Notes: generated by a model from the sequence alone, not told the origin. DNA of 64,000 bases from Candidatus Uhrbacteria bacterium (GCA_026395055.1 JAPLZK010000002.1:128154-192153), one strand, 5' to 3'; numbered from the stretch's first letter, positions 7,091 to 40,817 are shown. Translations and numbers: made by a program.

Positions 7091-7131
7091 CTCTCCCCTG
7101 CCTGAGGGGAGAGGAGGAGAGGGGTGGGAGG
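7091..7131. repeat. G-rich palindromic mini-element (CCCCTGC-loop-GGGGAG followed by a G-run)
   Basis: ctctcccctgcctgaggggagaggaggagaggggtgggagg. Member of the short hairpin plus G-run family. Confidence 0.6.
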
Positions 7132-7219: not shown

Positions 7220-7250
7220 CCAAAAAGCCGTTCTTACGTCAAACGGCTTA
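7220..7250 (-). terminator. Terminator of truB
   Basis: Minus strand: aagccgtt-loop-aacggctt followed by TTTTT. Confidence 0.55.
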
Positions 7251-7956
7251 AAAATGATTCTATTTGGATGAGGTGAGATTCGATGTTTGCAGGGTCGAGC
7301 TTGTCGAAGGTGAAAGCCTCTTCGATCTTGAATGGTCCGATCAGTGTCCGTCGAAGTTCAGAAACGTACCCACCAACCCCGAGTTTCGCCCCGAGATCCC
7401 GAGCGATCGAACGAATATAGGTCCCGGAAGAGCAGTGAATGCGGAGGCTTACTTCCCGCAATGCCCCTCCTGCAAAGGAAGGGTTGGGGGAGGTTTCGAG
7501 CGCATCAATCGAATAAATGGTCACTCTGCGTGGTTCCACGAGTGTTGGGGTTCCAGCACGAGCAAGTTCATAAAGCTTTTTTCCCTGGACTTTGATGGCT
7601 GCATACGTCGGCGGAACTTGGTCGATTTCGCCTATAAAAGTTTTCAGAGTTTCGTCGATTTGCTCTTTTGTCAGGTTTTCCGTCGAAACAGGCTCTGAAA
7701 TCTCACCCTTTATGTCGTCTGTGGTAGATGTGGCCCCCAAAACAAACGTCGCTTCATACCATTTATCGAGACCAACGAATTTTTGAAGCTCGCGGGTGCA
7801 TTCTCTGGAAACCGCAACCAAAAGCAACCCGGTCGCAAATGGGTCAAGCGTACCGGCATGGCCAATACGTTTTTCCTCCGTTAAACGGCGAAGTCGTGCC
7901 ACGACGTCAAAGGAGGTAATTCCTTCAGGTTTGTCGATAAGAATGAAACCTTTCAT
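7234..7956 (-). CDS. truB: tRNA pseudouridine(55) synthase TruB
   Basis: Motifs GHAGTLDP and LIDKPEGITSFDVV. The start is likely the internal Met (MKGFILIDKP). Confidence 0.85.
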   Translation of the reverse strand: MKGFILIDKPEGITSFDVVARLRRLTEEKRIGHAGTLDPFATGLLLVAVSRECTRELQKFVGLDKWYEATFVLGATSTTDDIKGEISEPVSTENLTKEQIDETLKTFIGEIDQVPPTYAAIKVQGKKLYELARAGTPTLVEPRRVTIYSIDALETSPNPSFAGGALREVSLRIHCSSGTYIRSIARDLGAKLGVGGYVSELRRTLIGPFKIEEAFTFDKLDPANIESHLIQIESFLSRLT

Positions 7957-22831: not shown

Positions 22832-24142
22832 ATGAACTTGGTGATTGTTGGAACGGGCTATGTTGGCCTTACATCTGCACTTGGATACACGCAACTCGGA
22901 CACCGAGTTGCGTGTGTTGACGTGGATGCAGAAAAAATTGCGCAGCTTGATCTTGGTCATGTGCCATTCTTCGAGGCGGGCCTCTCGGACGTGCTGCATA
23001 TTGCACAAGAATCTGGTTCGATTATTTTTACAACAGATCTTGCGTCTGTTTTGTCAGAAGCAGAACTTGTTTTGTTTGCTGTCGGAACGCCATCGACCTC
23101 GACGGGGGAAGCGAACTTGTCGTATCTCTTGCATGCTGCACGCGACGTTGGTCGATATCTCGACCACGAGGTTCTTCTCGTTGTGAAGAGCACGGTTCCG
23201 GTTGGAACCAATCAACGCGTTCTGGAAGTTGTGCGTGAGGCAATGACCGCAGCGGGTCGACAAGATCTCACGAGCCTGATTCAGATTGCATCGCTCCCAG
23301 AATTTTTGCGAGAAGGAAGTGCACTTGCAGATTTTATGGCACCAGAACGTATTGTTGTTGGGGCAGAAGACGAAGTGGCTTATCGAATGATTGAAGAATT
23401 ACATCGTGGAATACAAACGACGTGGGTGAAAACGACGATCGAAACGGCTGAACTTACAAAGTACGCAGCAAACGCCATGCTCGCCACAAAGATCTCGTTT
23501 ATTAACGAGATCGCAAATATTGCCGAACGAACCGGGGCAAATGTGGTCGACATCGCACATGCGATTGGACTCGACTCGCGCATTGGCCCACATTTTTTAA
23601 ATGCCGGAATTGGTTATGGTGGTTCGTGTTTTCCAAAAGATGTTTCAGCGTTGCGACAGATTGCGGGATCCATTGGGTATGATTTTAAATTGTTGTCTGC
23701 GGTGATTGAGGTGAATAATCACCAGCGCGATATCTTTTTGAAAAAAATCCAAGATGTTCTTGGAGACCTGAAAGGTCGCCGCATTGCGGTTTGGGGTCTT
23801 GCCTTTAAACCGGGGACGGACGACGTTCGTGAATCTGCAGCCATCGATCTGGTTCGACGACTCTATGCGCTTGGTGCAGACGTATTGGCCTATGATCCAA
23901 AAGGAATGGAAACGGCGAAACGCGTTTTACCAGATGGAATTCAATTTGCTCCAACCGCGATTGATGCGGCAGAGGGGGCAGAGGCACTTGTTGTGTTGAC
24001 GGAGTGGCCAGAATTTCGTGATGTCTCTTTTACAACGTTAAAAGCACGTATGCTGGATCCGATTGTGTTTGATGGAAGAAATTGTCTGCGAGATGTACGA
24101 CTCGAAAAATTTGGATTTACCTATGTGGGAGTTGGGATTTAA
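22832..24142 (+). CDS. ugd: UDP-glucose 6-dehydrogenase
   Basis: N-terminal NAD-binding motif GTGYVGL, catalytic GGSCFPKD and UDPG_MGDP dehydrogenase C-terminal motifs. Confidence 0.85.
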   Translation: MNLVIVGTGYVGLTSALGYTQLGHRVACVDVDAEKIAQLDLGHVPFFEAGLSDVLHIAQESGSIIFTTDLASVLSEAELVLFAVGTPSTSTGEANLSYLLHAARDVGRYLDHEVLLVVKSTVPVGTNQRVLEVVREAMTAAGRQDLTSLIQIASLPEFLREGSALADFMAPERIVVGAEDEVAYRMIEELHRGIQTTWVKTTIETAELTKYAANAMLATKISFINEIANIAERTGANVVDIAHAIGLDSRIGPHFLNAGIGYGGSCFPKDVSALRQIAGSIGYDFKLLSAVIEVNNHQRDIFLKKIQDVLGDLKGRRIAVWGLAFKPGTDDVRESAAIDLVRRLYALGADVLAYDPKGMETAKRVLPDGIQFAPTAIDAAEGAEALVVLTEWPEFRDVSFTTLKARMLDPIVFDGRNCLRDVRLEKFGFTYVGVGI

Positions 24143-25634
24143 AAAGATCATCGCATCGCCATCAAGAACATTCATGCTTCTTGCGGCGATGTTTTGTTTT
24201 GGCATTCTTCTTGGTCCGCTCACAATTGGAATCTCGACGAATGTATATGTTGCGTCTCTCGCAATCTGTGTTTTAAGTTTCGCATTCACCCCTCCTTCAC
24301 AAGGAGGGGTTGGGGGTGGTCGCATTATTGCGCTTGTAATTTTTCTTTTTATCTTCGGATTATTCCGTTATCAACAAAGTGAAATTCCAAAAAATATCCC
24401 AACGGTTCGAGATCATGTTGGTTCACTCATACGCGTCGAAGGGGATGTCGTTTCTGAACCATCGATGGGCGCAAAATCCCAACAGGTAACGATTGGCCAT
24501 GTTCATGTTGTCGATGCGCCCGTATTCGGAAATGTCCTAGTCTCCCTCCCCTTAACAGGGGGAGGGTCGGGGTGGGGGCATGTCTTCTATGGAGACCATC
24601 TTGTTTTTTCTTGTTCGATGCAAATTCCCCGACCGTTCAGTGGGTTCGCGTACGATCGATACTTACAAGCGAAGGGAACGCTCGCGCTTTGTCGCTTTCC
24701 GCATGATCTTGAGCGTGTGCCATCGACACACGTGTCCGTCGTTGGTTCGATCCTCGCACTCAAAGGAGACATTGTCTTGTTAATGAAACGGGTCTTTCCT
24801 GAACCACACGCTTCGTTTTTATTCGGCCTTGTCTTTGGAGGGAATGTCGGCCTCGATAAAGATCTTCAAAACGATTTTGCGAAAACGGGAACGTCACACA
24901 TTCTCGCCGCATCTGGTTTCAATGTCTCACTTTTCACATTCGTCTTCTTTGGTTTCGTGATTCAATATCTCGGCCGTAAGCGCGGTGCGATTGCCACAGC
25001 GATTCTTCTTGTTGCCTATGTCATCATGGCTGGCGCGACGGCGGCCGTCGTGCGAGCTGCAGTTTTTGGAAGTGTCCTCCTCGTCGGTTCAACAATCGGG
25101 CGCCGCGCATCAATTGTGAATACACTTCTGTTTACCGCAGCGCTCATGTTGTTCTACAATCCTCGCTGGCTCCTTGACGATGTTGGTTTCCAACTTTCGT
25201 TCGTCGCATTCGTTGCAATCATTTTCGTCGCACCACGTCTCGAGACGCATCTTGCATTTGTTCCAGAGCAACTTGGGATTCGAGACGCACTTGCGGGTTC
25301 ACTCTCTGCGATCGTTCTTACATTACCGATCATGCTCTGGCAGTTCGGTGCCATCTCGCTCGTTGCTCCATTTGCAAATGTGTTTGTTCTTCCGATCGTT
25401 CCATTTCTCATGCTCTACACAATCGTGATCTTGCCGATTGCGTGGATCTCAACATCGATCGGACAACTCATTGCACTCCCATCACTCTTTGGTTCGAAGT
25501 ACATGCTTGCGATTATTTCCACGTTTGCTTCTCCGGGATTTGCGTCCGTTTCTGTTCCATTTGCACACATTGGCGCAATCGTTATCGCGATAGCACTCGG
25601 AATCGGATGCGTTGCTTATTTACGAAAGGCATGA
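24123..25634 (+). CDS. comEC: ComEC/Rec2-family competence membrane protein (no metallo-beta-lactamase domain)
   Basis: Polytopic membrane protein with the competence domain (FLFGLVFGG...GTSHILAASGFNVS...). Starts at MWELGFKK, overlapping the ugd 3' end by 20 nt in another frame. Confidence 0.75.
   Translation: MWELGFKKIIASPSRTFMLLAAMFCFGILLGPLTIGISTNVYVASLAICVLSFAFTPPSQGGVGGGRIIALVIFLFIFGLFRYQQSEIPKNIPTVRDHVGSLIRVEGDVVSEPSMGAKSQQVTIGHVHVVDAPVFGNVLVSLPLTGGGSGWGHVFYGDHLVFSCSMQIPRPFSGFAYDRYLQAKGTLALCRFPHDLERVPSTHVSVVGSILALKGDIVLLMKRVFPEPHASFLFGLVFGGNVGLDKDLQNDFAKTGTSHILAASGFNVSLFTFVFFGFVIQYLGRKRGAIATAILLVAYVIMAGATAAVVRAAVFGSVLLVGSTIGRRASIVNTLLFTAALMLFYNPRWLLDDVGFQLSFVAFVAIIFVAPRLETHLAFVPEQLGIRDALAGSLSAIVLTLPIMLWQFGAISLVAPFANVFVLPIVPFLMLYTIVILPIAWISTSIGQLIALPSLFGSKYMLAIISTFASPGFASVSVPFAHIGAIVIAIALGIGCVAYLRKA
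24288..24320. repeat. In-frame palindromic G-rich mini-element inside comEC (copy 1)
   Basis: cccctcc-ttcacaa-ggagggg followed by ttgggggtgg. Encodes TPPSQGGVGGG. Confidence 0.65.
24541..24579. repeat. In-frame palindromic G-rich mini-element inside comEC (copy 2)
   Basis: ctccctcccc-ttaaca-gggggaggg followed by tcggggtggggg. Encodes LPLTGGGSGWG. Confidence 0.65.
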
Positions 25635-25671
25635 TATCTTTGCGTCAAATTAACTTGTAACCCTTCTTTCT

Positions 25672-26130
25672 ATGGCAGATGTACAACGCACCCTCGTCCT
25701 TCTTAAACCAGACGCTCTTCAACGCGATTTGCTCGGAGAAATCCTTACGCGCTTTGAACGCAAGGGTCTCAAGATCATCGGACTCAAGTTGTTTCAACTT
25801 TCGGACGAACAACTGAACGTGCACTACGCACACCTTGCAGAAAAATCTTTTTTTGCAGACTTGAAAACATTCATGAAGCACACACCGGTTGTTGGAATCG
25901 TGCTTGAAGGAATGGAAGCTATTGCAGAAGTTCGCAAGATGATTGGTTCTACAAATCCATTGCAAGCAGATGCAGGAACGGTACGCGCAGATTTTTCTAT
26001 GAACGTTTCTTCAAACTTAGTGCATGCATCTGACTCTGTTGAGAACGCGGCAGAAGAAGTAAAACGATTCTTTAAAGAGGAAGAATTGTTCGCCTACGCA
26101 AAAATCACCGACCAATACATCTTTGGTTAA
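25672..26130 (+). CDS. ndk: Nucleoside diphosphate kinase
   Basis: Motifs RTLVLLKPD and NLVHASDS (catalytic His context). 152 aa. Confidence 0.9.
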   Translation: MADVQRTLVLLKPDALQRDLLGEILTRFERKGLKIIGLKLFQLSDEQLNVHYAHLAEKSFFADLKTFMKHTPVVGIVLEGMEAIAEVRKMIGSTNPLQADAGTVRADFSMNVSSNLVHASDSVENAAEEVKRFFKEEELFAYAKITDQYIFG

Positions 26131-26134
26131 TCAC

Positions 26135-26165
26135 AAAAAACCCTGAGCACGGCTCAGGGTTTTTG
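26135..26165 (+). terminator. Rho-independent terminator after ndk
   Basis: ccctgagc-acg-gctcaggg followed by TTTTT. Confidence 0.7.
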
Positions 26166-26167
26166 AA

Positions 26168-26196
26168 TTGACAAGCGTCGAAGATTTCGTTACTGT
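26168..26196 (+). promoter_or_regulatory. Candidate promoter for the 26228 gene
   Basis: TTGACA, 17-bp spacer, TACTGT. RBS ggagg sits before the ATG at 26228. Confidence 0.45.
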
Positions 26197-26227
26197 TCAC
26201 CTTCGTTCTTTTGGGTTTGGAGGAAAA

Positions 26228-27355
26228 ATGATTCATTGGAAGCAGTTAGATGAATGGCAGAAGGATTGGCTGAACGTGGATGTGGATGCGCTCAAAAAGC
26301 GACGAGAATTCTTACGACGCGCTCCACTGCGTGATCAGGCCTTGTTTGTTGATTCGCTTCAAGTTGTTCGCCAAGGACGACGCGAGTTGATGAAAGACTT
26401 CGCCGCCATTTACGCACATCAAACGGGATTGGATTCTGCGATTGCAAGCACGCCACACATGGATCGTTTGCTTGAACTTGCAGAACGTCATCGCGATGGT
26501 GGGTCTCCGGATCCTCGTCGGTGGTTTGAGGCGTTGAGTTTGTTTGACCAAGCGCTCGCCATCGCACGTATTGAATACAAAGATCCACTCGAATCGGTTG
26601 GACGCGACCTTGAAGTTTTGTTGGACTTTTTATGGAGCACGTTTTTTGATGATGAGTACAAGCGCATTCATCTGCATGCGTACCATGATCCTACAAAACA
26701 ATTCATCGTCACAGAAGACGACGTTTCCATAGATGAGCCACTGATTCGTCCAGGGTTGATTCATCGAGTCTATCCATTGGATTGTCGCCGTATCACAAGT
26801 GGCGGTATTGCGTTCATGGATGATCGTATCAAAGGAGCCTTTTCGACGTGGTTGAAGATTGGGCGAAAAATGAAAGATGGGATCGTGACAGATACCTATA
26901 ATGTCACAGATCGTTGCGGTCTTACATTCGTTGTTCCAACACGCGCAGACCTTGTTGAGTTTGCTCTATCGCTTCTTGATACATTGTTGAAAAACGGTGC
27001 AGAGGAGCTTGAAAAGTTGTCAGAGGCGGGTGAAGACGTTGCCGCGGATCCAACAAATCGAAGCTCCTCTTCGATGTATCGTATGGCAAAGATGCTTGTT
27101 ATGTGGCATGAGCGTGAATATGAATTCCAGTTCATTACGTTTCATGATTACTTCACCGCAAAACGTTCGCTCACGGATGCGAATCATGATCTTTATAAGC
27201 TGAGGCAGGCATGCGGCTTTTCCTTTCCGTATCTGTGGCCTACGTCCATTTACGGGATCGAGTGGGAACAAGAACATGTTCGAAACGATTTGCGTGCATG
27301 GAAAATCGACCAACTTGGTTGGCACGTGAATGGAAAACATTCCGTAAATCTTTGA
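26228..27355 (+). CDS. Hypothetical protein, possible RelA/SpoT-like (nucleotidyltransferase-fold) alarmone-synthetase-type domain
   Basis: Weak but ordered matches to RelA/SpoT synthetase motifs: D..GL.FVV (VTDRCGLTFVV), YR..H-like (MYRMAKMLVMWH), and EFQFIT...H.LYK resembling E(I/V)Q(I/L)RT...H..YK. Plus an unrecognised N-terminal region. Confidence 0.35.
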   Translation: MIHWKQLDEWQKDWLNVDVDALKKRREFLRRAPLRDQALFVDSLQVVRQGRRELMKDFAAIYAHQTGLDSAIASTPHMDRLLELAERHRDGGSPDPRRWFEALSLFDQALAIARIEYKDPLESVGRDLEVLLDFLWSTFFDDEYKRIHLHAYHDPTKQFIVTEDDVSIDEPLIRPGLIHRVYPLDCRRITSGGIAFMDDRIKGAFSTWLKIGRKMKDGIVTDTYNVTDRCGLTFVVPTRADLVEFALSLLDTLLKNGAEELEKLSEAGEDVAADPTNRSSSSMYRMAKMLVMWHEREYEFQFITFHDYFTAKRSLTDANHDLYKLRQACGFSFPYLWPTSIYGIEWEQEHVRNDLRAWKIDQLGWHVNGKHSVNL

Positions 27356-27382
27356 GATCGCGCCTGCGATCTCTTTTTGTTT
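27355..27382 (+). terminator. Rho-independent terminator
   Basis: gatcgc-gcct-gcgatc followed by TCTTTTTGTTT. Confidence 0.55.
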
Positions 27383-27385
27383 CTG

Positions 27386-27414
27386 TTGACAATTCAGGGC
27401 GCATACAATATATT
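27386..27414 (+). promoter_or_regulatory. Strong consensus sigma70-like promoter
   Basis: TTGACA, exact 17-bp spacer, TATATT. RBS ggagg and the ATG at 27453 follow. Confidence 0.6.
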
Positions 27415-27452
27415 CGCTCTCGTGTCTCAATGGTTTTTTCTTCGGAGGCTCC

Positions 27453-27947
27453 ATGTTTCTTCAGTCACGTTTTCAGTTTTTGGCTACCTGGGATTCGCTG
27501 AGGCCCAAAGTTCAGCGCGCGTTCCTTGCGGGAAAGATCACGTATGAGGAGGCGCAACAGTTCTCGACACGTTCGTGTCTTGAGAACAAGCGACTCAACG
27601 TACAGGTGGAACTTCTTCACACCAAGCGTCATGAAGTTCTGTTCCGCACGCATGCGGACATCAACAATCCGCACAAAGACATTCAAGCACTCGCCGATGA
27701 ACTTGATCGCATGCCGGAACACGTTGCCATGCAGGTGATGGGTGGCAAGCTCACGCTCGTGCAAGCGCGCTTCGCGGATCGCAACAAGTTTGGCGCGAAA
27801 GGCGTGCAAGACTTGTGCCACACGAACACGCCGACGCTTCCGTATCGCGTGCGCAAATTTGCGTCCGGCACGGAACATTCGGTTCGCAGCTTCGTCCAGG
27901 TTCGTTCGCGCAGTCGCTTTGCGCATCCGTCCTCGCGGCGCAAGTAA
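27453..27947 (+). CDS. Hypothetical basic protein
   Basis: 164-aa ORF with a consensus promoter and RBS. Arg-rich C-terminus, no recognised family, GC-rich. Confidence 0.5.
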   Translation: MFLQSRFQFLATWDSLRPKVQRAFLAGKITYEEAQQFSTRSCLENKRLNVQVELLHTKRHEVLFRTHADINNPHKDIQALADELDRMPEHVAMQVMGGKLTLVQARFADRNKFGAKGVQDLCHTNTPTLPYRVRKFASGTEHSVRSFVQVRSRSRFAHPSSRRK

Positions 27948-28009
27948 TTCCTTCTCGATCTCCTTTTCATAGGAGGTCTTTTTTGTTTGGTGTGATATTC
28001 TACGTCCGT

Positions 28010-28789
28010 ATGATTGGTATTTTTGATTCTGGGATGGGTGGTCTGACGGTCGCCATGGCGATTCGTGAGCGTGCACCGCTCGCAGATTTTGTGTACTTCG
28101 CGGATCTTGCAAACATGCCGTTTGGAGAAAAGTCTGAGGAAGAACTTTTACACATCACAAAACACGCGATTCAATTTTTGATGGATCACGGTGCAACAGA
28201 GATTGTCGCTGCGTGTAATAGCGTCTCCATGCTTGCATCTGGTTTGCGATCAGAAATTCATATTCCCATTATGGAAATGTCCGAGCCGACGGTTTGCGCA
28301 CTTGCACAGGACCACCCCCAACCCCTCCTTGTAAAGGAGGAGAGTTTGCCATCTATTCTTGTTGTGGCAACAGAAGCAACGGTTCGATCGGGGATGTATG
28401 CGCGGGCGTTTGCCGCACAAGGAATCAAGATTGAGTCGATGGCGATTCCTGTACTCGCATCTGCAATTGAGCGAGATGCGTCTCGGATGGAACTTCGAGA
28501 AATTATTTTACCTGCCGTCAAGTATGCAATCACGATGAATGCGAAGACTCTCGTGCTTGGTTGCACACAATACCCATTCGCTCGATCTCTTTTTGAAGAG
28601 ATGTTTTTTGAACAAAACTATTTCATCGAAGTGTTTGATCCAGCCGACGCCGTTGCAGAAGAAGTCGTTTCACAATTTGATGTGCGGGGAAGGGGAGAGC
28701 AAACGTTTTTCGTTTCCAAGTCTTCCGAGGTGTTCGATCGATCTGTTCGAGAGTTCTTCAGTTCCAAATCATTGATCTCGATTCCTTGA
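28010..28789 (+). CDS. murI: Glutamate racemase
   Basis: N-terminal FDSGMGGLTV, then CNSVS and a second conserved Cys region (VLGCTQYPF). Start at MIGIFDSG. Confidence 0.85.
   Translation: MIGIFDSGMGGLTVAMAIRERAPLADFVYFADLANMPFGEKSEEELLHITKHAIQFLMDHGATEIVAACNSVSMLASGLRSEIHIPIMEMSEPTVCALAQDHPQPLLVKEESLPSILVVATEATVRSGMYARAFAAQGIKIESMAIPVLASAIERDASRMELREIILPAVKYAITMNAKTLVLGCTQYPFARSLFEEMFFEQNYFIEVFDPADAVAEEVVSQFDVRGRGEQTFFVSKSSEVFDRSVREFFSSKSLISIP
28311..28342. repeat. In-frame palindromic mini-element inside murI (inverted orientation: C-run then hairpin)
   Basis: cacccccaa-cccctcctt-gtaaa-ggaggag. Encodes HPQPLLVKEES. Confidence 0.6.
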
Positions 28790-30559: not shown

Positions 30560-30590
30560 ACACCCTTCTTGGTTGAAGGGTGTTTTTGTT
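30560..30590 (+). terminator. Rho-independent terminator
   Basis: acacccttc-ttggtt-gaagggtgt followed by TTTTGTTT. Confidence 0.65.
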
Positions 30591-30595
30591 TCTAG

Positions 30596-30631
30596 GCCCT
30601 CCCCCTGCAAAGGGGGAGCTGGAGGGGGTTC
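30596..30631. repeat. Palindromic G-rich mini-element overlapping the RBS of the GNAT gene
   Basis: ccctccccct-gcaaa-gggggag followed by ctggagggggtt. The ggaggggg run lies 6 nt upstream of the ATG at 30634. Confidence 0.6.
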
Positions 30632-30633
30632 CC

Positions 30634-31227
30634 ATGCGTATTCGTCGGTTTCAAATGAAAGACATGGTAGAGATGGTTGTGTTGTATCAGAAATGTTTTT
30701 CAGAGGCGCCGTGGTTTGAGGTGCATGATGCAAAAGATGTGCAACGCATGTTTCGAAAATATGCGAAGACGGATGCAAAACCGGATATGGTTGTGTGTGT
30801 CTGTGAACAAGATGGTCGTTTGGTTGGGGGAGCGATCGGTTTCCACATCTGGTATAAACAAGAGGTGCTCAAATTGATTTCGGCACATTGCGAAATCCAT
30901 TTCAGCGCACACGACTCTGTTGATCGTGAACCGTACCAAGAAATTCAGGGAGTCTTCTACTTCGCCGAACTGTTTGTGGATCCGTCTGTTCGTGGACAGG
31001 GAATTGGAAAGGCCTTGATTGAAGAGCGTCTTGCGTTTGCTCGTCGTCGTGGTTATCAGAAAGGAGTTGTTCGCACGTCTCTGGATCAAAAAGTGATTCA
31101 GCATCTCTACAAAGATCAACTTGGGTTCAAAGAAGTTGCGCGTCAGGCGTTGCTTGCGAAGAAGTTGATTGACGGTGTCGAAGAGGAACTCGCGTACACG
31201 AGTGTGATCATGGTCGGAAAAATTTAG
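30634..31227 (+). CDS. GNAT family N-acetyltransferase
   Basis: Acetyl-CoA binding motif (VDPSVRGQGIGKALIEE) and GNAT fold features. Start at MRIRRFQ. Confidence 0.75.
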   Translation: MRIRRFQMKDMVEMVVLYQKCFSEAPWFEVHDAKDVQRMFRKYAKTDAKPDMVVCVCEQDGRLVGGAIGFHIWYKQEVLKLISAHCEIHFSAHDSVDREPYQEIQGVFYFAELFVDPSVRGQGIGKALIEERLAFARRRGYQKGVVRTSLDQKVIQHLYKDQLGFKEVARQALLAKKLIDGVEEELAYTSVIMVGKI

Positions 31228-31296: not shown

Positions 31297-31328
31297 AAAA
31301 ACCTCCCTGTGCATGTGCAGAGGGAGGC
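31297..31328 (-). terminator. Terminator for nadE (minus strand)
   Basis: Minus strand: cctccctctgcacatgcacagggagg followed by TTTTTT. Confidence 0.6.
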
Positions 31329-39843: not shown

Positions 39844-40602
39844 TTAGGTGTGGATCTGATCCGAGTTGATGCACTTCACGCCGCGAGCGATGAGGCGCGC
39901 TTCCATGAAGGCAATCGAGCCGGGGTAGTCGCCATCCGGAGGCAAACCAACGGAGCGCGTGCAGTCGCGGACGATGTAGGACTCGAAGCCTTCGAGTGCC
40001 GCGTCTTCGGCTGTGAAGCCAACGCAGAAGTCGAACGCGAGACCGACGATGAACACGCGCTTGATGCCGCGTTCCTTCAGGATGCGACCAAGACCAGTCG
40101 GCATCCAAAGCGTGTCGCGAAACGCGCTGTAGCTGTCGACGCGCGGATCCGTTCCCTTCGGGAAGTGCAGAATGAACGCGTCGTCGAGATCGCGCAGGCC
40201 GTCGAAGAGACGAATCTCGTTTGTGGTCATATCGGCATGTTCGTCCCAGAGGAGCGTTTCATGCCGATTGAGGCGCATGAGGTAGGCGATCAAATCTTCG
40301 CGGGTGAAGAGTGCATGCTTCGCAATCTTGACCTTGTTTTGCAGAACTTCCGTGATGGTGAGCGGACCGCGGGCCCGTTTCACGTAGGAGGTTCGGTAGT
40401 TGATGTGACCCCTCGGGTGCGCATCGAAGACGTTGAAACGTTGGCGGCGCTTGAACTTCAGAACGAGTTCCCGGAGGACCCCGATGATATCAAGCGCGCC
40501 AGGCACCGGCAGTCCACCATCTGGACCAAATGCATTTGTCGCATCAACGACGATGACCGCATCGCCTTTGCCGATCTTGATCAAACCTTCGAAATTCAGC
40601 AT
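39844..40602 (-). CDS. pncA: Nicotinamidase/pyrazinamidase (isochorismatase family)
   Basis: Isochorismatase-fold motifs VVDATNAF, FDAHP.GH and the catalytic Cys context GLAFDFCV. Confidence 0.7.
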   Translation of the reverse strand: MLNFEGLIKIGKGDAVIVVDATNAFGPDGGLPVPGALDIIGVLRELVLKFKRRQRFNVFDAHPRGHINYRTSYVKRARGPLTITEVLQNKVKIAKHALFTREDLIAYLMRLNRHETLLWDEHADMTTNEIRLFDGLRDLDDAFILHFPKGTDPRVDSYSAFRDTLWMPTGLGRILKERGIKRVFIVGLAFDFCVGFTAEDAALEGFESYIVRDCTRSVGLPPDGDYPGSIAFMEARLIARGVKCINSDQIHT

Positions 40603-40607
40603 GACTC

Positions 40608-40635
40608 ACCTCAATCCCCACGGTGGGGAGGTTCA
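40608..40635. repeat. G-rich palindromic mini-element at the pncA 5' end
   Basis: cctcaatcccca-cgg-tggggaggtt. May supply the SD on the minus strand (ggaggtgagtcATG). Confidence 0.5.
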
Positions 40636-40817
40636 ACGAACAGAATCTGCGGAAAACACTGTGTCATCTGCAGATGAATTCATTGAAAAAACGCTTTTTG
40701 AGAACCGGGGAGAATACCTGATTTTGGCCATTTTGTCAATGGTTTTCGGTTGGTTTACACGAACGAACCCTGAGCGGCCCTTTTCGAGGCTTTTTCGTTG
40801 GAAGGTGCTGTAAATTA

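Follow-up and report, generated by a model that had tools for sequence, protein, structure and literature searches.

The stretch analysed here, referred to as the window, is 64 kb of a contig from a metagenome-assembled genome (MAG) of Candidatus Uhrbacteria, a lineage of the Candidate Phyla Radiation (CPR); all positions are counted from the window start. It contains short palindromic units, each built from a C-rich arm, a loop, a G-rich arm and a G-run, that lie in-frame within the genes for ComEC, MurI and TruB and also in intergenic spacers. Comparison with related loci shows, at the level of sequence, that the units in the window are insertions. They are probably non-autonomous solo ends of a widespread mobile family that is associated with genes for DUF559 proteins and resembles REPINs (doublets of repetitive extragenic palindromic (REP) elements forming hairpins). 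The evidence for the association with DUF559 is strong, while the mechanism of mobility is one that we infer.

The canonical unit is about 33 nt long and reads CCCCTCCTT-loop-AAGGAGGGG-TTGGGGGTGG; units in the window span 31-41 nt. Three copies are canonical, and three looser copies keep the same plan but differ in sequence. The copies, one doubtful site and the host genes are as follows.

24288..24320, plus strand: canonical copy, ComEC site 1; CCCCTCCTT-CAC-AAGGAGGGG with tail TTGGGGGTGG; in-frame, peptide TPPSQGGVGGG.
24541..24579, plus strand: looser variant copy, ComEC site 2; TCCCTCCCC-TTAACA-GGGGGAGGG-TCGGGGTGGGGG; in-frame, peptide SLPLTGGGSGWG.
28311..28342, minus strand (orientation of the G-run): canonical copy in MurI; in-frame, peptide HPQPLLVKEE.
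7464..7497, plus strand (gene on minus): canonical but partly decayed copy in TruB; GCCCCTCCTGCAAAGGAAGGGTTGGGGGAGGT; peptide TSPNPSFAGGA.
7091..7131, plus strand: looser intergenic variant in the TruB/RNase Y spacer; CTCTCCCCT-GCCTG-AGGGGAGAG with GAGGAGAGGGGTGGGAGG.
30597..30631, plus strand: looser intergenic variant upstream of the GNAT gene; CCCTCCCCC-TGCAA-AGGGGGAG with CTGGAGGGGG.
40606..40636, minus strand: doubtful degenerate relative; 5-bp CCCC/GGGG stem with TTGAGGTGAG.
24123..25634, plus strand: ComEC/Rec2, 503 aa; Pfam PF13567 and PF03772; 100% match to an NCBI Candidatus Uhrbacteria protein.
28010..28789, plus strand: glutamate racemase MurI, 259 aa; Pfam PF01177; 100% identical to protein P0001 (Candidatus Uhrbacteria).
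7234..7956, minus strand: tRNA pseudouridine-55 synthase TruB, 240 aa; matching proteins bear PF01509 and PF16198.
30635..31227, plus strand: GNAT acetyltransferase; ATG at 30635; its ribosome-binding site is now the G-run of the element.

The copy at ComEC site 1 has the sequence ACCCCTCCTTCACAAGGAGGGGTTGGGGGTGGT and the reverse complement of the MurI copy is CTCCTCCTTTACAAGGAGGGGTTGGGGGTGGT; an exact 23-mer, ACAAGGAGGGGTTGGGGGTGGTC, is common to the two. The arm pair CCCCTCCT(T)/(A)AGGAGGGG, whose loop varies, is exact at 24288 and 28311 and has 2 mismatches at 7464. A GGGGTGG-type tail is present on one side only in the window copies, as TTGGGGGTGG. When the window is searched with the 19-mer AAGGARGGGTTGGGGGWGG at up to 3 mismatches, these three sites are the only matches, against 0 expected. 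A detector of pyrimidine-arm/purine-arm hairpins with an adjoining G-run or C-run finds 5 in the 64-kb window and 0 in 30 block shuffles. Folded as single-stranded DNA, the copy at 24288-24320 is predicted at -10.4 kcal/mol (z -4.0), and DNA folding indicates that the stems of the MurI and TruB copies are weakened. Every in-gene copy preserves the reading frame, the four copies spanning three combinations of frame and orientation, and on direct reading the unit consensus has stop codons in none of the six frames outside the loop. A search of the window against Rfam at the gathering threshold returned no RNA family, tRNA included (ARAGORN was not run), and a permissive search over the ComEC copies gave chance-level matches only (E > 1).

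An initial annotation of the window had described hairpin elements in-frame twice in comEC and once in murI. The coordinates, sequence, reading frames and Pfam identities all agree with that description, although the fourth in-gene copy, in TruB, had been missed. It had also listed three intergenic members. The copies at 7091-7131 and 30597-30631 stand, but the site at 40608, with its 5-bp stem, was picked up by none of the family criteria used and is at best a doubtful, degenerate relative of the element. The proposal that the G-run doubles as a Shine-Dalgarno sequence is borne out at 30597 for the GNAT gene. It also holds at 40608, where the tail GAGGTGAG is the Shine-Dalgarno of a minus-strand gene ending at 40602, although this site is doubtful as an element.

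That the units are insertions is seen in relatives without them (L- and P-numbers below are labels of compared loci and proteins). Orthologues of MurI, ComEC and TruB have gaps of 5-10 residues at the unit positions. The 10-residue insert of MurI is missing in 18 of 19 aligned relatives, 76%-identical ones included, while one relative of 67% identity has a different family member, GACCCCTCCCTGCCTCCCCTTGGCAGGGGAGGAGAA, in the same loop. In ComEC the unit of site 1 is missing in the syntenic relative L123 and in about 12 of 20 Uhrbacteria orthologues; that of site 2 is missing in L123 and in about 14 of the 20. A few relatives bear other variants at both positions, for example PLPRGGQGWG and NPLLSKEGAGGG at site 2. 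TruB relatives at 85-88% identity are without the unit, and the TruB loop is a hot spot in which other lineages bear other repeat-like peptides.

The two intergenic copies are clean insertions. The one at 7091-7131 is a net insertion of 33 nt relative to L206 and L208, the TruB/RNase Y spacer being otherwise about 90% identical, and 30597-30621 is a net insertion of 25 nt relative to L122 and L123 in a spacer that is otherwise about 95% identical. Here the G-run of the unit replaces the ancestral AAGGAG ribosome-binding site of the GNAT gene. In sequence, the ancestral state of both empty sites is similar to part of the unit (TGCAAAGGAGC compared with TGCAAAGGGGGAGC, TCTCCCCTTT compared with CTCTCCCCT). 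No tailed hairpin is present in about 47 kb of the closest relatives, while the 64-kb window has 5-6.

AlphaFold2 models of MurI and TruB (mean pLDDT, the predicted local distance difference test, 88.7 and 86.7) show both insert peptides in predicted loops. The MurI peptide forms a low-pLDDT coil between a helix (residues 91-101) and a strand (115-120). The TruB peptide likewise lies in a loop, bounded by two strands (143-152 and 167-175), and pLDDT falls below 50 over residues 156-163. The surface loops expected by the initial annotation are thus matched by low-confidence coil in these two models. It had also asked whether the insert peptides are lineage-specific. The MurI, ComEC and TruB relatives are mostly without them, so that the peptides are lineage-restricted, and a repeat family does exist. 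The broader claim of a mobile miniature element tolerated in proteins is supported by these lineage-restricted peptides and by the clean intergenic empty sites.

Some side observations concern the window and its relatives. The same β-hairpin loop of TruB holds other peptides in P0129, P0141, P0145, P0150, P0152 and P0155 (e.g. SLRAERSNLPGEVESAGKIASSSMTPPRND and TPLNPPLVRGE), and L206 (10470-10530) has a hairpin in which the G-arm comes first, GGGAGGGTCACGACCCTCCC. In Uhrbacteria this loop thus appears to be used by a number of small repeat families that are unrelated to one another. The leucyl-tRNA synthetase of a related Uhrbacteria (L206 1-1213) has 932 aa and a match to an ASCH domain, whereas that of the window is called at 800 aa (L001), a size difference that is a further case of domain-level insertion in an Uhrbacteria housekeeping enzyme. 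Just upstream of the 30597 unit, a terminator-like hairpin (CACCCTTCTTGGTTGAAGGGTG, 30561-30582) followed by a T-run is kept nearly base for base in L122 and L123. A perfect 9-bp hairpin, CCTCCCTGTGCATGTGCAGAGGGAGG, at 31302-31327 has no G-run or C-run tail and is outside the family count.

The window units also belong to a family that crosses phyla, as a scan with the 19-mer over one genome per species showed by shared sequence. The complementary (upstream) arm was not part of the pattern. At least 120 stretches in at least 10 phyla contain the 19-mer, whereas our own estimate, which assumes uniform base composition, is about 17 by chance. The complementary arm CCCCTCCTT is nevertheless present, with up to 1 mismatch, 2-6 nt upstream in 140 of 155 copies (90%). 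The loops appear alike within one genome and unlike between genomes. Among the matches listed, the carriers include isolates of Bacteroidota (Hymenobacter, Pontibacter, Pedobacter, Adhaeribacter and Aureivirga), Thiomargarita, Acinetobacter, Alphaproteobacteria including a Rickettsiales MAG, Armatimonadota, Planctomycetota, Nitrospirota, Acidobacteriota and Verrucomicrobiota, and, within the CPR, Uhrbacteria, Magasanikbacteria and Shapirobacteria. The occurrence of a near-identical 33-nt sequence in CPR, Bacteroidota, Thiomargarita and Acinetobacter points to horizontal spread. Phages were considered as carriers and rejected, since the 19-mer is on only 2 viral contigs and a relative of DUF559 is in 3 phage records. 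Queries of the literature with the unit sequence, with its reverse complement or with cyanobacterial variants brought up unrelated papers only.

The 120 family loci from other genomes contain 260 tailed hairpins, arranged as singlets, inverted doublets and tandem arrays. The pairs comprise 52 inverted R-F doublets within 120 bp, with the tails outward, and 22 F-R pairs. The R-F doublets are about 80-110 bp long with inverted ends, and the unit ends read (A/G)CT...GGTGGTT. In a Thiomargarita MAG (L053 4560-5040; L011 7140-7322) at least 8 copies form head-to-tail arrays with a period of 41 bp, and many singlets and doublets of the same genome adjoin a second repeat (...gtgcgtaaggtgag...).

Most copies are intergenic; some 15-20 are located within long open frames that evidently belong to genes. 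Many of the proteins concerned bear several related units. Examples, with the host proteins named by eye from sequence and not via Pfam, are given below.

SMC (L050, Magasanikbacteria): in-frame unit, peptide ETSPNPSFAKEGG.
Urocanate hydratase, HutU (L034): in-frame unit, peptide DHPQPLLSKEGS.
VirB4-like ATPase (L077): in-frame unit.
Cysteinyl-tRNA synthetase, CysRS (L121): in-frame unit.
Methionine synthase, MetH (L073): in-frame unit.
FemAB-like protein (L015): copy in an open frame.

About half of the in-gene copies elsewhere (L015, L046, L050, L059, L073, L083, L086, L107 and L121) are read in one orientation and frame as T-[T/S]-P-N-P-S-[L/F], which is also the reading of the TruB copy in the window. 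This is a hint that units within genes are tolerated better in some frames than in others.

The physical link of the family to DUF559 is shown by gene content and position, with a mobile role for the protein remaining putative. Clustering of the open reading frames (ORFs) of the 120 loci gives a sole recurrent non-housekeeping neighbour, a protein of 110-170 aa that matches PF04480 (DUF559; E 6e-32). All 8 DUF559 genes in loci found through the element lie within about 150 bp of a unit. For a test set defined by the protein only, 80 metagenomic loci were fetched through DUF559 alone; a first metagenome query, an alignment of 7 DUF559 sequences, was too divergent, and the query was repeated with 4 sequences. 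C-arm/G-arm hairpins lie within 300 bp of DUF559 in 78 of the 80 loci, and on both sides in 61. Their density is 4.7 per kb near DUF559 and 0.24 per kb further away (about 19-fold). This near-versus-far enrichment was used because stems picked by the detector would make covariation counts circular.

In the usual order the ORF is preceded by hairpin-GGGGTGG and followed by CCACCCC-hairpin, that is, by inverted-repeat ends. The upstream end reads (A/G)CTCCCCTCCT-loop-AGGAGGGG, followed after 0-20 nt of spacer (in many cases itself a second small GC hairpin) by GGGGTGGT, and stops 20-60 bp before the ORF. The downstream end, 5-40 bp past the ORF, reads ACCACCCC-CCCCTCCT-loop-AGGAGGGGAG. The commonest arm beside DUF559 is of the CCCCTCCT type, L196 has exactly the sequence found in the window copies, and the one-sided GGGGTGG-type tail is found at 38 of 58 upstream and 37 of 59 downstream ends. 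The similarity of the DUF559 proteins correlates with that of their ends (Mantel r 0.62 and 0.60, p 0.001). Ends that belong to the same cassette resemble each other more closely (score 20.3) than ends of different cassettes do (12.8). In other loci whole R-F doublets lie on both sides of the DUF559 gene, an arrangement reminiscent of REPtrons. One of these (L038 5456-5806, a Nitrospiraceae MAG) is a DUF559 pseudogene with an in-frame stop between intact R-F doublets. On plasmid pAQ6 of Picosynechococcus PCC 7002, the ends that flank DUF559 take a cyanobacterial form, CCCCC-loop-GGGGG-YTAGGGGG. At least 7 hairpins of the CCCCC-loop-GGGGG-(C/T)TAGGGGG type and a second repeat, AAATCCCCnnnnGGGGACTTTCTACTGGTG, surround the annotated DUF559 gene there (L209 400-1170), which sits between a PIN-domain gene and a DUF1156 gene.

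A whole cassette with its ends is fused in-frame within a larger protein, where it splits a known domain, in about 8 of the 80 loci. The split domains are an Eco57I-type methylase (L132 and L157) and Type_ISP_C (L130), and cassettes also lie in proteins that are HsdS-like by eye (L169 and L129). A further cassette is inside the gene for PglX of a BREX (bacteriophage exclusion) system (L210), where the frame was not checked. The MetH of a Raineya sp. MAG (L073 5300-5950) contains a complete in-frame DUF559 domain flanked by the element-coded peptides SPPSKEGQGEV and TSPNPSLKGGEH, with a further unit, SSLEKGLGGEV, downstream. The closest solved structure to the DUF559 protein is PDB 3hrl (E 1e-27). 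Residues D53, E64, D66 and H70 are invariant in the DUF559 alignment. Together with the PF04480 and 3hrl matches they agree with a Vsr-like PD-(D/E)XK fold with a conserved acidic/His motif. DUF559 has been grouped with Vsr and the homing endonuclease I-Bth0305I (PMC3424549). Proteins annotated as 'DUF559 domain-containing protein' are 14-fold enriched among predicted targets of programmed inversion, alongside PglX and Eco57I methylases (PMC9881135), which fits genes bounded by inverted repeats and is an indirect echo of the arrangement described here.

In the favoured explanation the full element would be a cassette of about 0.5 kb that codes for DUF559, a putative Vsr-like PD-(D/E)XK endonuclease. 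Inverted repeats would mark its two boundaries, both made up of a C-arm/G-arm hairpin (CCCCTCCT..AGGAGGGG) and a GGGGTGG tail, and these ends would also exist without the gene as REPIN-like inverted doublets, singlets and tandem arrays. In this Uhrbacteria lineage copies of 25-33 nt would have entered spacers and permissive surface loops of ComEC, MurI and TruB, with only frame-keeping insertions (net multiples of three) surviving in genes. As the unit is free of stops and the insertions keep the frame, the copies would simply be translated as Pro/Gly-rich loop peptides. Once inserted, the hairpin would be free to decay, as in the TruB and MurI copies, and one copy would have landed on a ribosome-binding site that it now supplies. 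The DUF559 nuclease may make the break, and its repair, primed by short homology of the GGAGG/CCTCC kind, may then bring in the unit with another copy as template. Two hints lead to this repair idea: before insertion both empty sites already had a sequence similar to part of the unit, and the different variants in the same loops of relatives would fit overwriting by gene conversion. Another origin for the singlets, as products of recombination between the two hairpins of one cassette or doublet, was rejected because it predicts 0 or 2 tails and the window copies have 1.

Several observations weigh against this explanation. Neither the window nor about 14 kb of extension, out of a contig of 339 kb, yielded a DUF559 gene, and look-ups with the edge proteins of the window gave short Logan contigs only, with no further unit copy and no DUF559. 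The window has singlets and no doublets, while doublets are the commonest arrangement elsewhere. A target-site duplication was not recognised at the two clean empty sites. The DUF559 query was drawn from genes adjacent to the element, so that the 80-locus test covers one subfamily. A minority of loci (L027, L119, L186 and L210) have the order R-ORF-F, which makes two arrangements of gene and ends. Finally, we know of no Vsr-like nuclease that performs strand transfer, and the mechanism of spread is therefore conjecture.

The minority order also bears on a different explanation, in which the hairpins are an independent repeat family, spread by a different route such as template switching or gene conversion at GGAGG/CCTCC microhomology, and the DUF559 genes are parasites like homing endonucleases with a preference for inserting in or next to them, as some insertion sequences (IS) target REPs. 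At L027, L119 and L210 the gene looks as if it had been dropped into the spacer of an R-F doublet, and entire R-F doublets recur to its left and right at L042 and L055. Solo units far outnumber DUF559 genes, which are in 8 of the 120 loci, and both clean empty sites are similar to part of the unit in their ancestral sequence. However, cassettes in at least 6 unrelated host proteins, in-frame, always have hairpins on both sides, for which one event is more parsimonious than two. End similarity moreover tracks DUF559 protein similarity, and within one cassette each end finds its best match in the other. We regard it as unlikely, though deserving of serious attention, that the DUF559 genes have homed into repeats already present instead of bringing them along. 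A second mobile explanation, that these are ordinary REP/REPIN elements mobilised by a RAYT (REP-associated tyrosine transposase, of the IS200/IS605 type) encoded elsewhere in each genome, would account for the size, the imperfect palindrome, the singlets and inverted doublets and the mostly intergenic location; REPs inside genes, TruB genes included, are on record (PMC3733652). It seems rather improbable, as the unit is without the GTAG or CGTC end tag and is identical across phyla where REP sequences are normally lineage-specific. Across about 835 kb of flanks DUF559 recurs beside the units and no transposase family does, although a single distant RAYT per genome is possible.

The unit may instead be a functional cis element under selection, such as a hairpin that masks the Shine-Dalgarno sequence, a stabiliser or terminator of mRNA, or a hairpin/G-quadruplex switch. 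The stem is a perfect Shine-Dalgarno/anti-Shine-Dalgarno pair, the tail at 30597 is the ribosome-binding site of the GNAT gene, and the G-runs could form G-quadruplexes. Hairpins upstream of genes for Vsr-like homing endonucleases mask the ribosome-binding site (PMC2677866). We nevertheless consider selection for such a function very improbable, given in-gene copies that take both orientations and three different frames, coding copies that are losing their stems, close relatives without the unit at every site, and no matching Rfam family. The idea that the Gly/Pro-rich segments are low-complexity linkers evolved locally, and not repeat insertions, could draw on the hypervariable length of the host loops among relatives. 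It is hardly tenable: it is already contradicted by an identical 23-mer for which ComEC and MurI use different frames and orientations, the same DNA is found in distant phyla, and the intergenic insertions are clean.

The explanation of the units as solo ends of a DUF559-associated family can be set beside known systems. Palindromic repeats that lie in-frame in conserved genes, TruB included, and are tolerated as extra peptides are known, with Rickettsia palindromic elements (RPEs) as the classic case, and REPs too are found inside genes (PMC3733652, PMC10969869). The resemblance to RPEs drawn by the initial annotation holds for this in-frame tolerance and not for membership. RPEs are about 100-150 bp long and confined to Rickettsia, whereas the present unit is about 33 nt (31-41 nt in the window, with net insertions of 25-33 nt), occurs in at least 10 phyla and is found as the ends of DUF559 cassettes; the two are set apart by size and range and not by sequence comparison. 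Closer in architecture are the REP/REPIN-RAYT systems, with which the family shares an imperfect palindrome of 20-40 nt, a conserved unpaired flank, an arrangement as singlets, inverted doublets and clusters, occasional in-gene copies and, as in REPtrons, a small nuclease-type gene flanked by repeats (PMC3116915, PMC3733652). However, the GTAG/CGTC tag by which REPs are defined (PMC3733652) is absent, the flanked gene is a Vsr-like PD-(D/E)XK DUF559 and not an HUH tyrosine transposase, and the repeat is common across phyla where REPs are lineage-specific. [quoted passage not shown]

Homing endonucleases of the Vsr-like (EDxHD) type, such as I-Bth0305I, and 'fractured gene' endonucleases fall in the same superfamily clade as DUF559 (PMC3424549). 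They are free-standing selfish genes that invade conserved genes and have hairpins upstream of the start (PMC2677866). They reside in introns, in inteins or between the halves of split inteins, and home to one cognate site. The DUF559 cassettes, in contrast, have inverted hairpin ends, are dispersed, are free-standing or fused in-frame with hairpin-coded linkers, and are accompanied by many gene-less ends. The in-frame read-through cassettes show no sign of an intein, intein and intron motifs not having been searched for. Among other GC-rich repeats, the small dispersed repeats (SDRs) of heterocystous cyanobacteria are reportedly about 20-30 nt long, associated with hairpins, mobile, and present in genes and structural RNAs; they may overlap with the cyanobacterial end variant of pAQ6. 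The GC-cluster or 'byp' elements of yeast mitochondria are short GC-rich palindromic mobile units in coding genes that are bypassed by the ribosome or lie outside codons. Unlike these, the present unit has a frame and length that would fit plain translation.

Among the papers listed as mentioning DUF559, none links it to repeats in its title or abstract, and in the accessible literature no description was found of the sequence family, its cross-phylum spread or a link of DUF559 to dispersed repeats. The observation in the window is a variant of known in-frame palindromic repeats; it is the DUF559-linked family that was not found described. We tentatively propose, as a possibility short of an even chance, an apparently undescribed class of element: a DUF559-only cassette of about 0.5 kb, with ends made of an inverted Shine-Dalgarno/anti-Shine-Dalgarno hairpin and a G-run, which may have crossed at least 10 phyla with nearly unchanged ends, insert in-frame into essential and defence genes without splicing, and seed translated gene-less ends as REPIN-like doublets and 33-nt singlets. 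If this is true, DUF559 would stand to these repeats as RAYT does to REPs, with another nuclease fold, and the chemistry would be break repair of a homing-like kind rather than that of a transposase.

To our knowledge, DUF559 is a very large protein family without known function. Through its consistent link to these dispersed repeats it acquires a role open to testing, that of nuclease partner in a REPIN-like family. The in-frame cassettes in methyltransferases, MetH and SMC are natural domain insertions with flexible linkers and could serve as a tool. For the CPR, with their minimal genomes, the finding means that proteins are remodelled by 33-nt insertions in surface loops, which affects their annotation, alignment and structure prediction.

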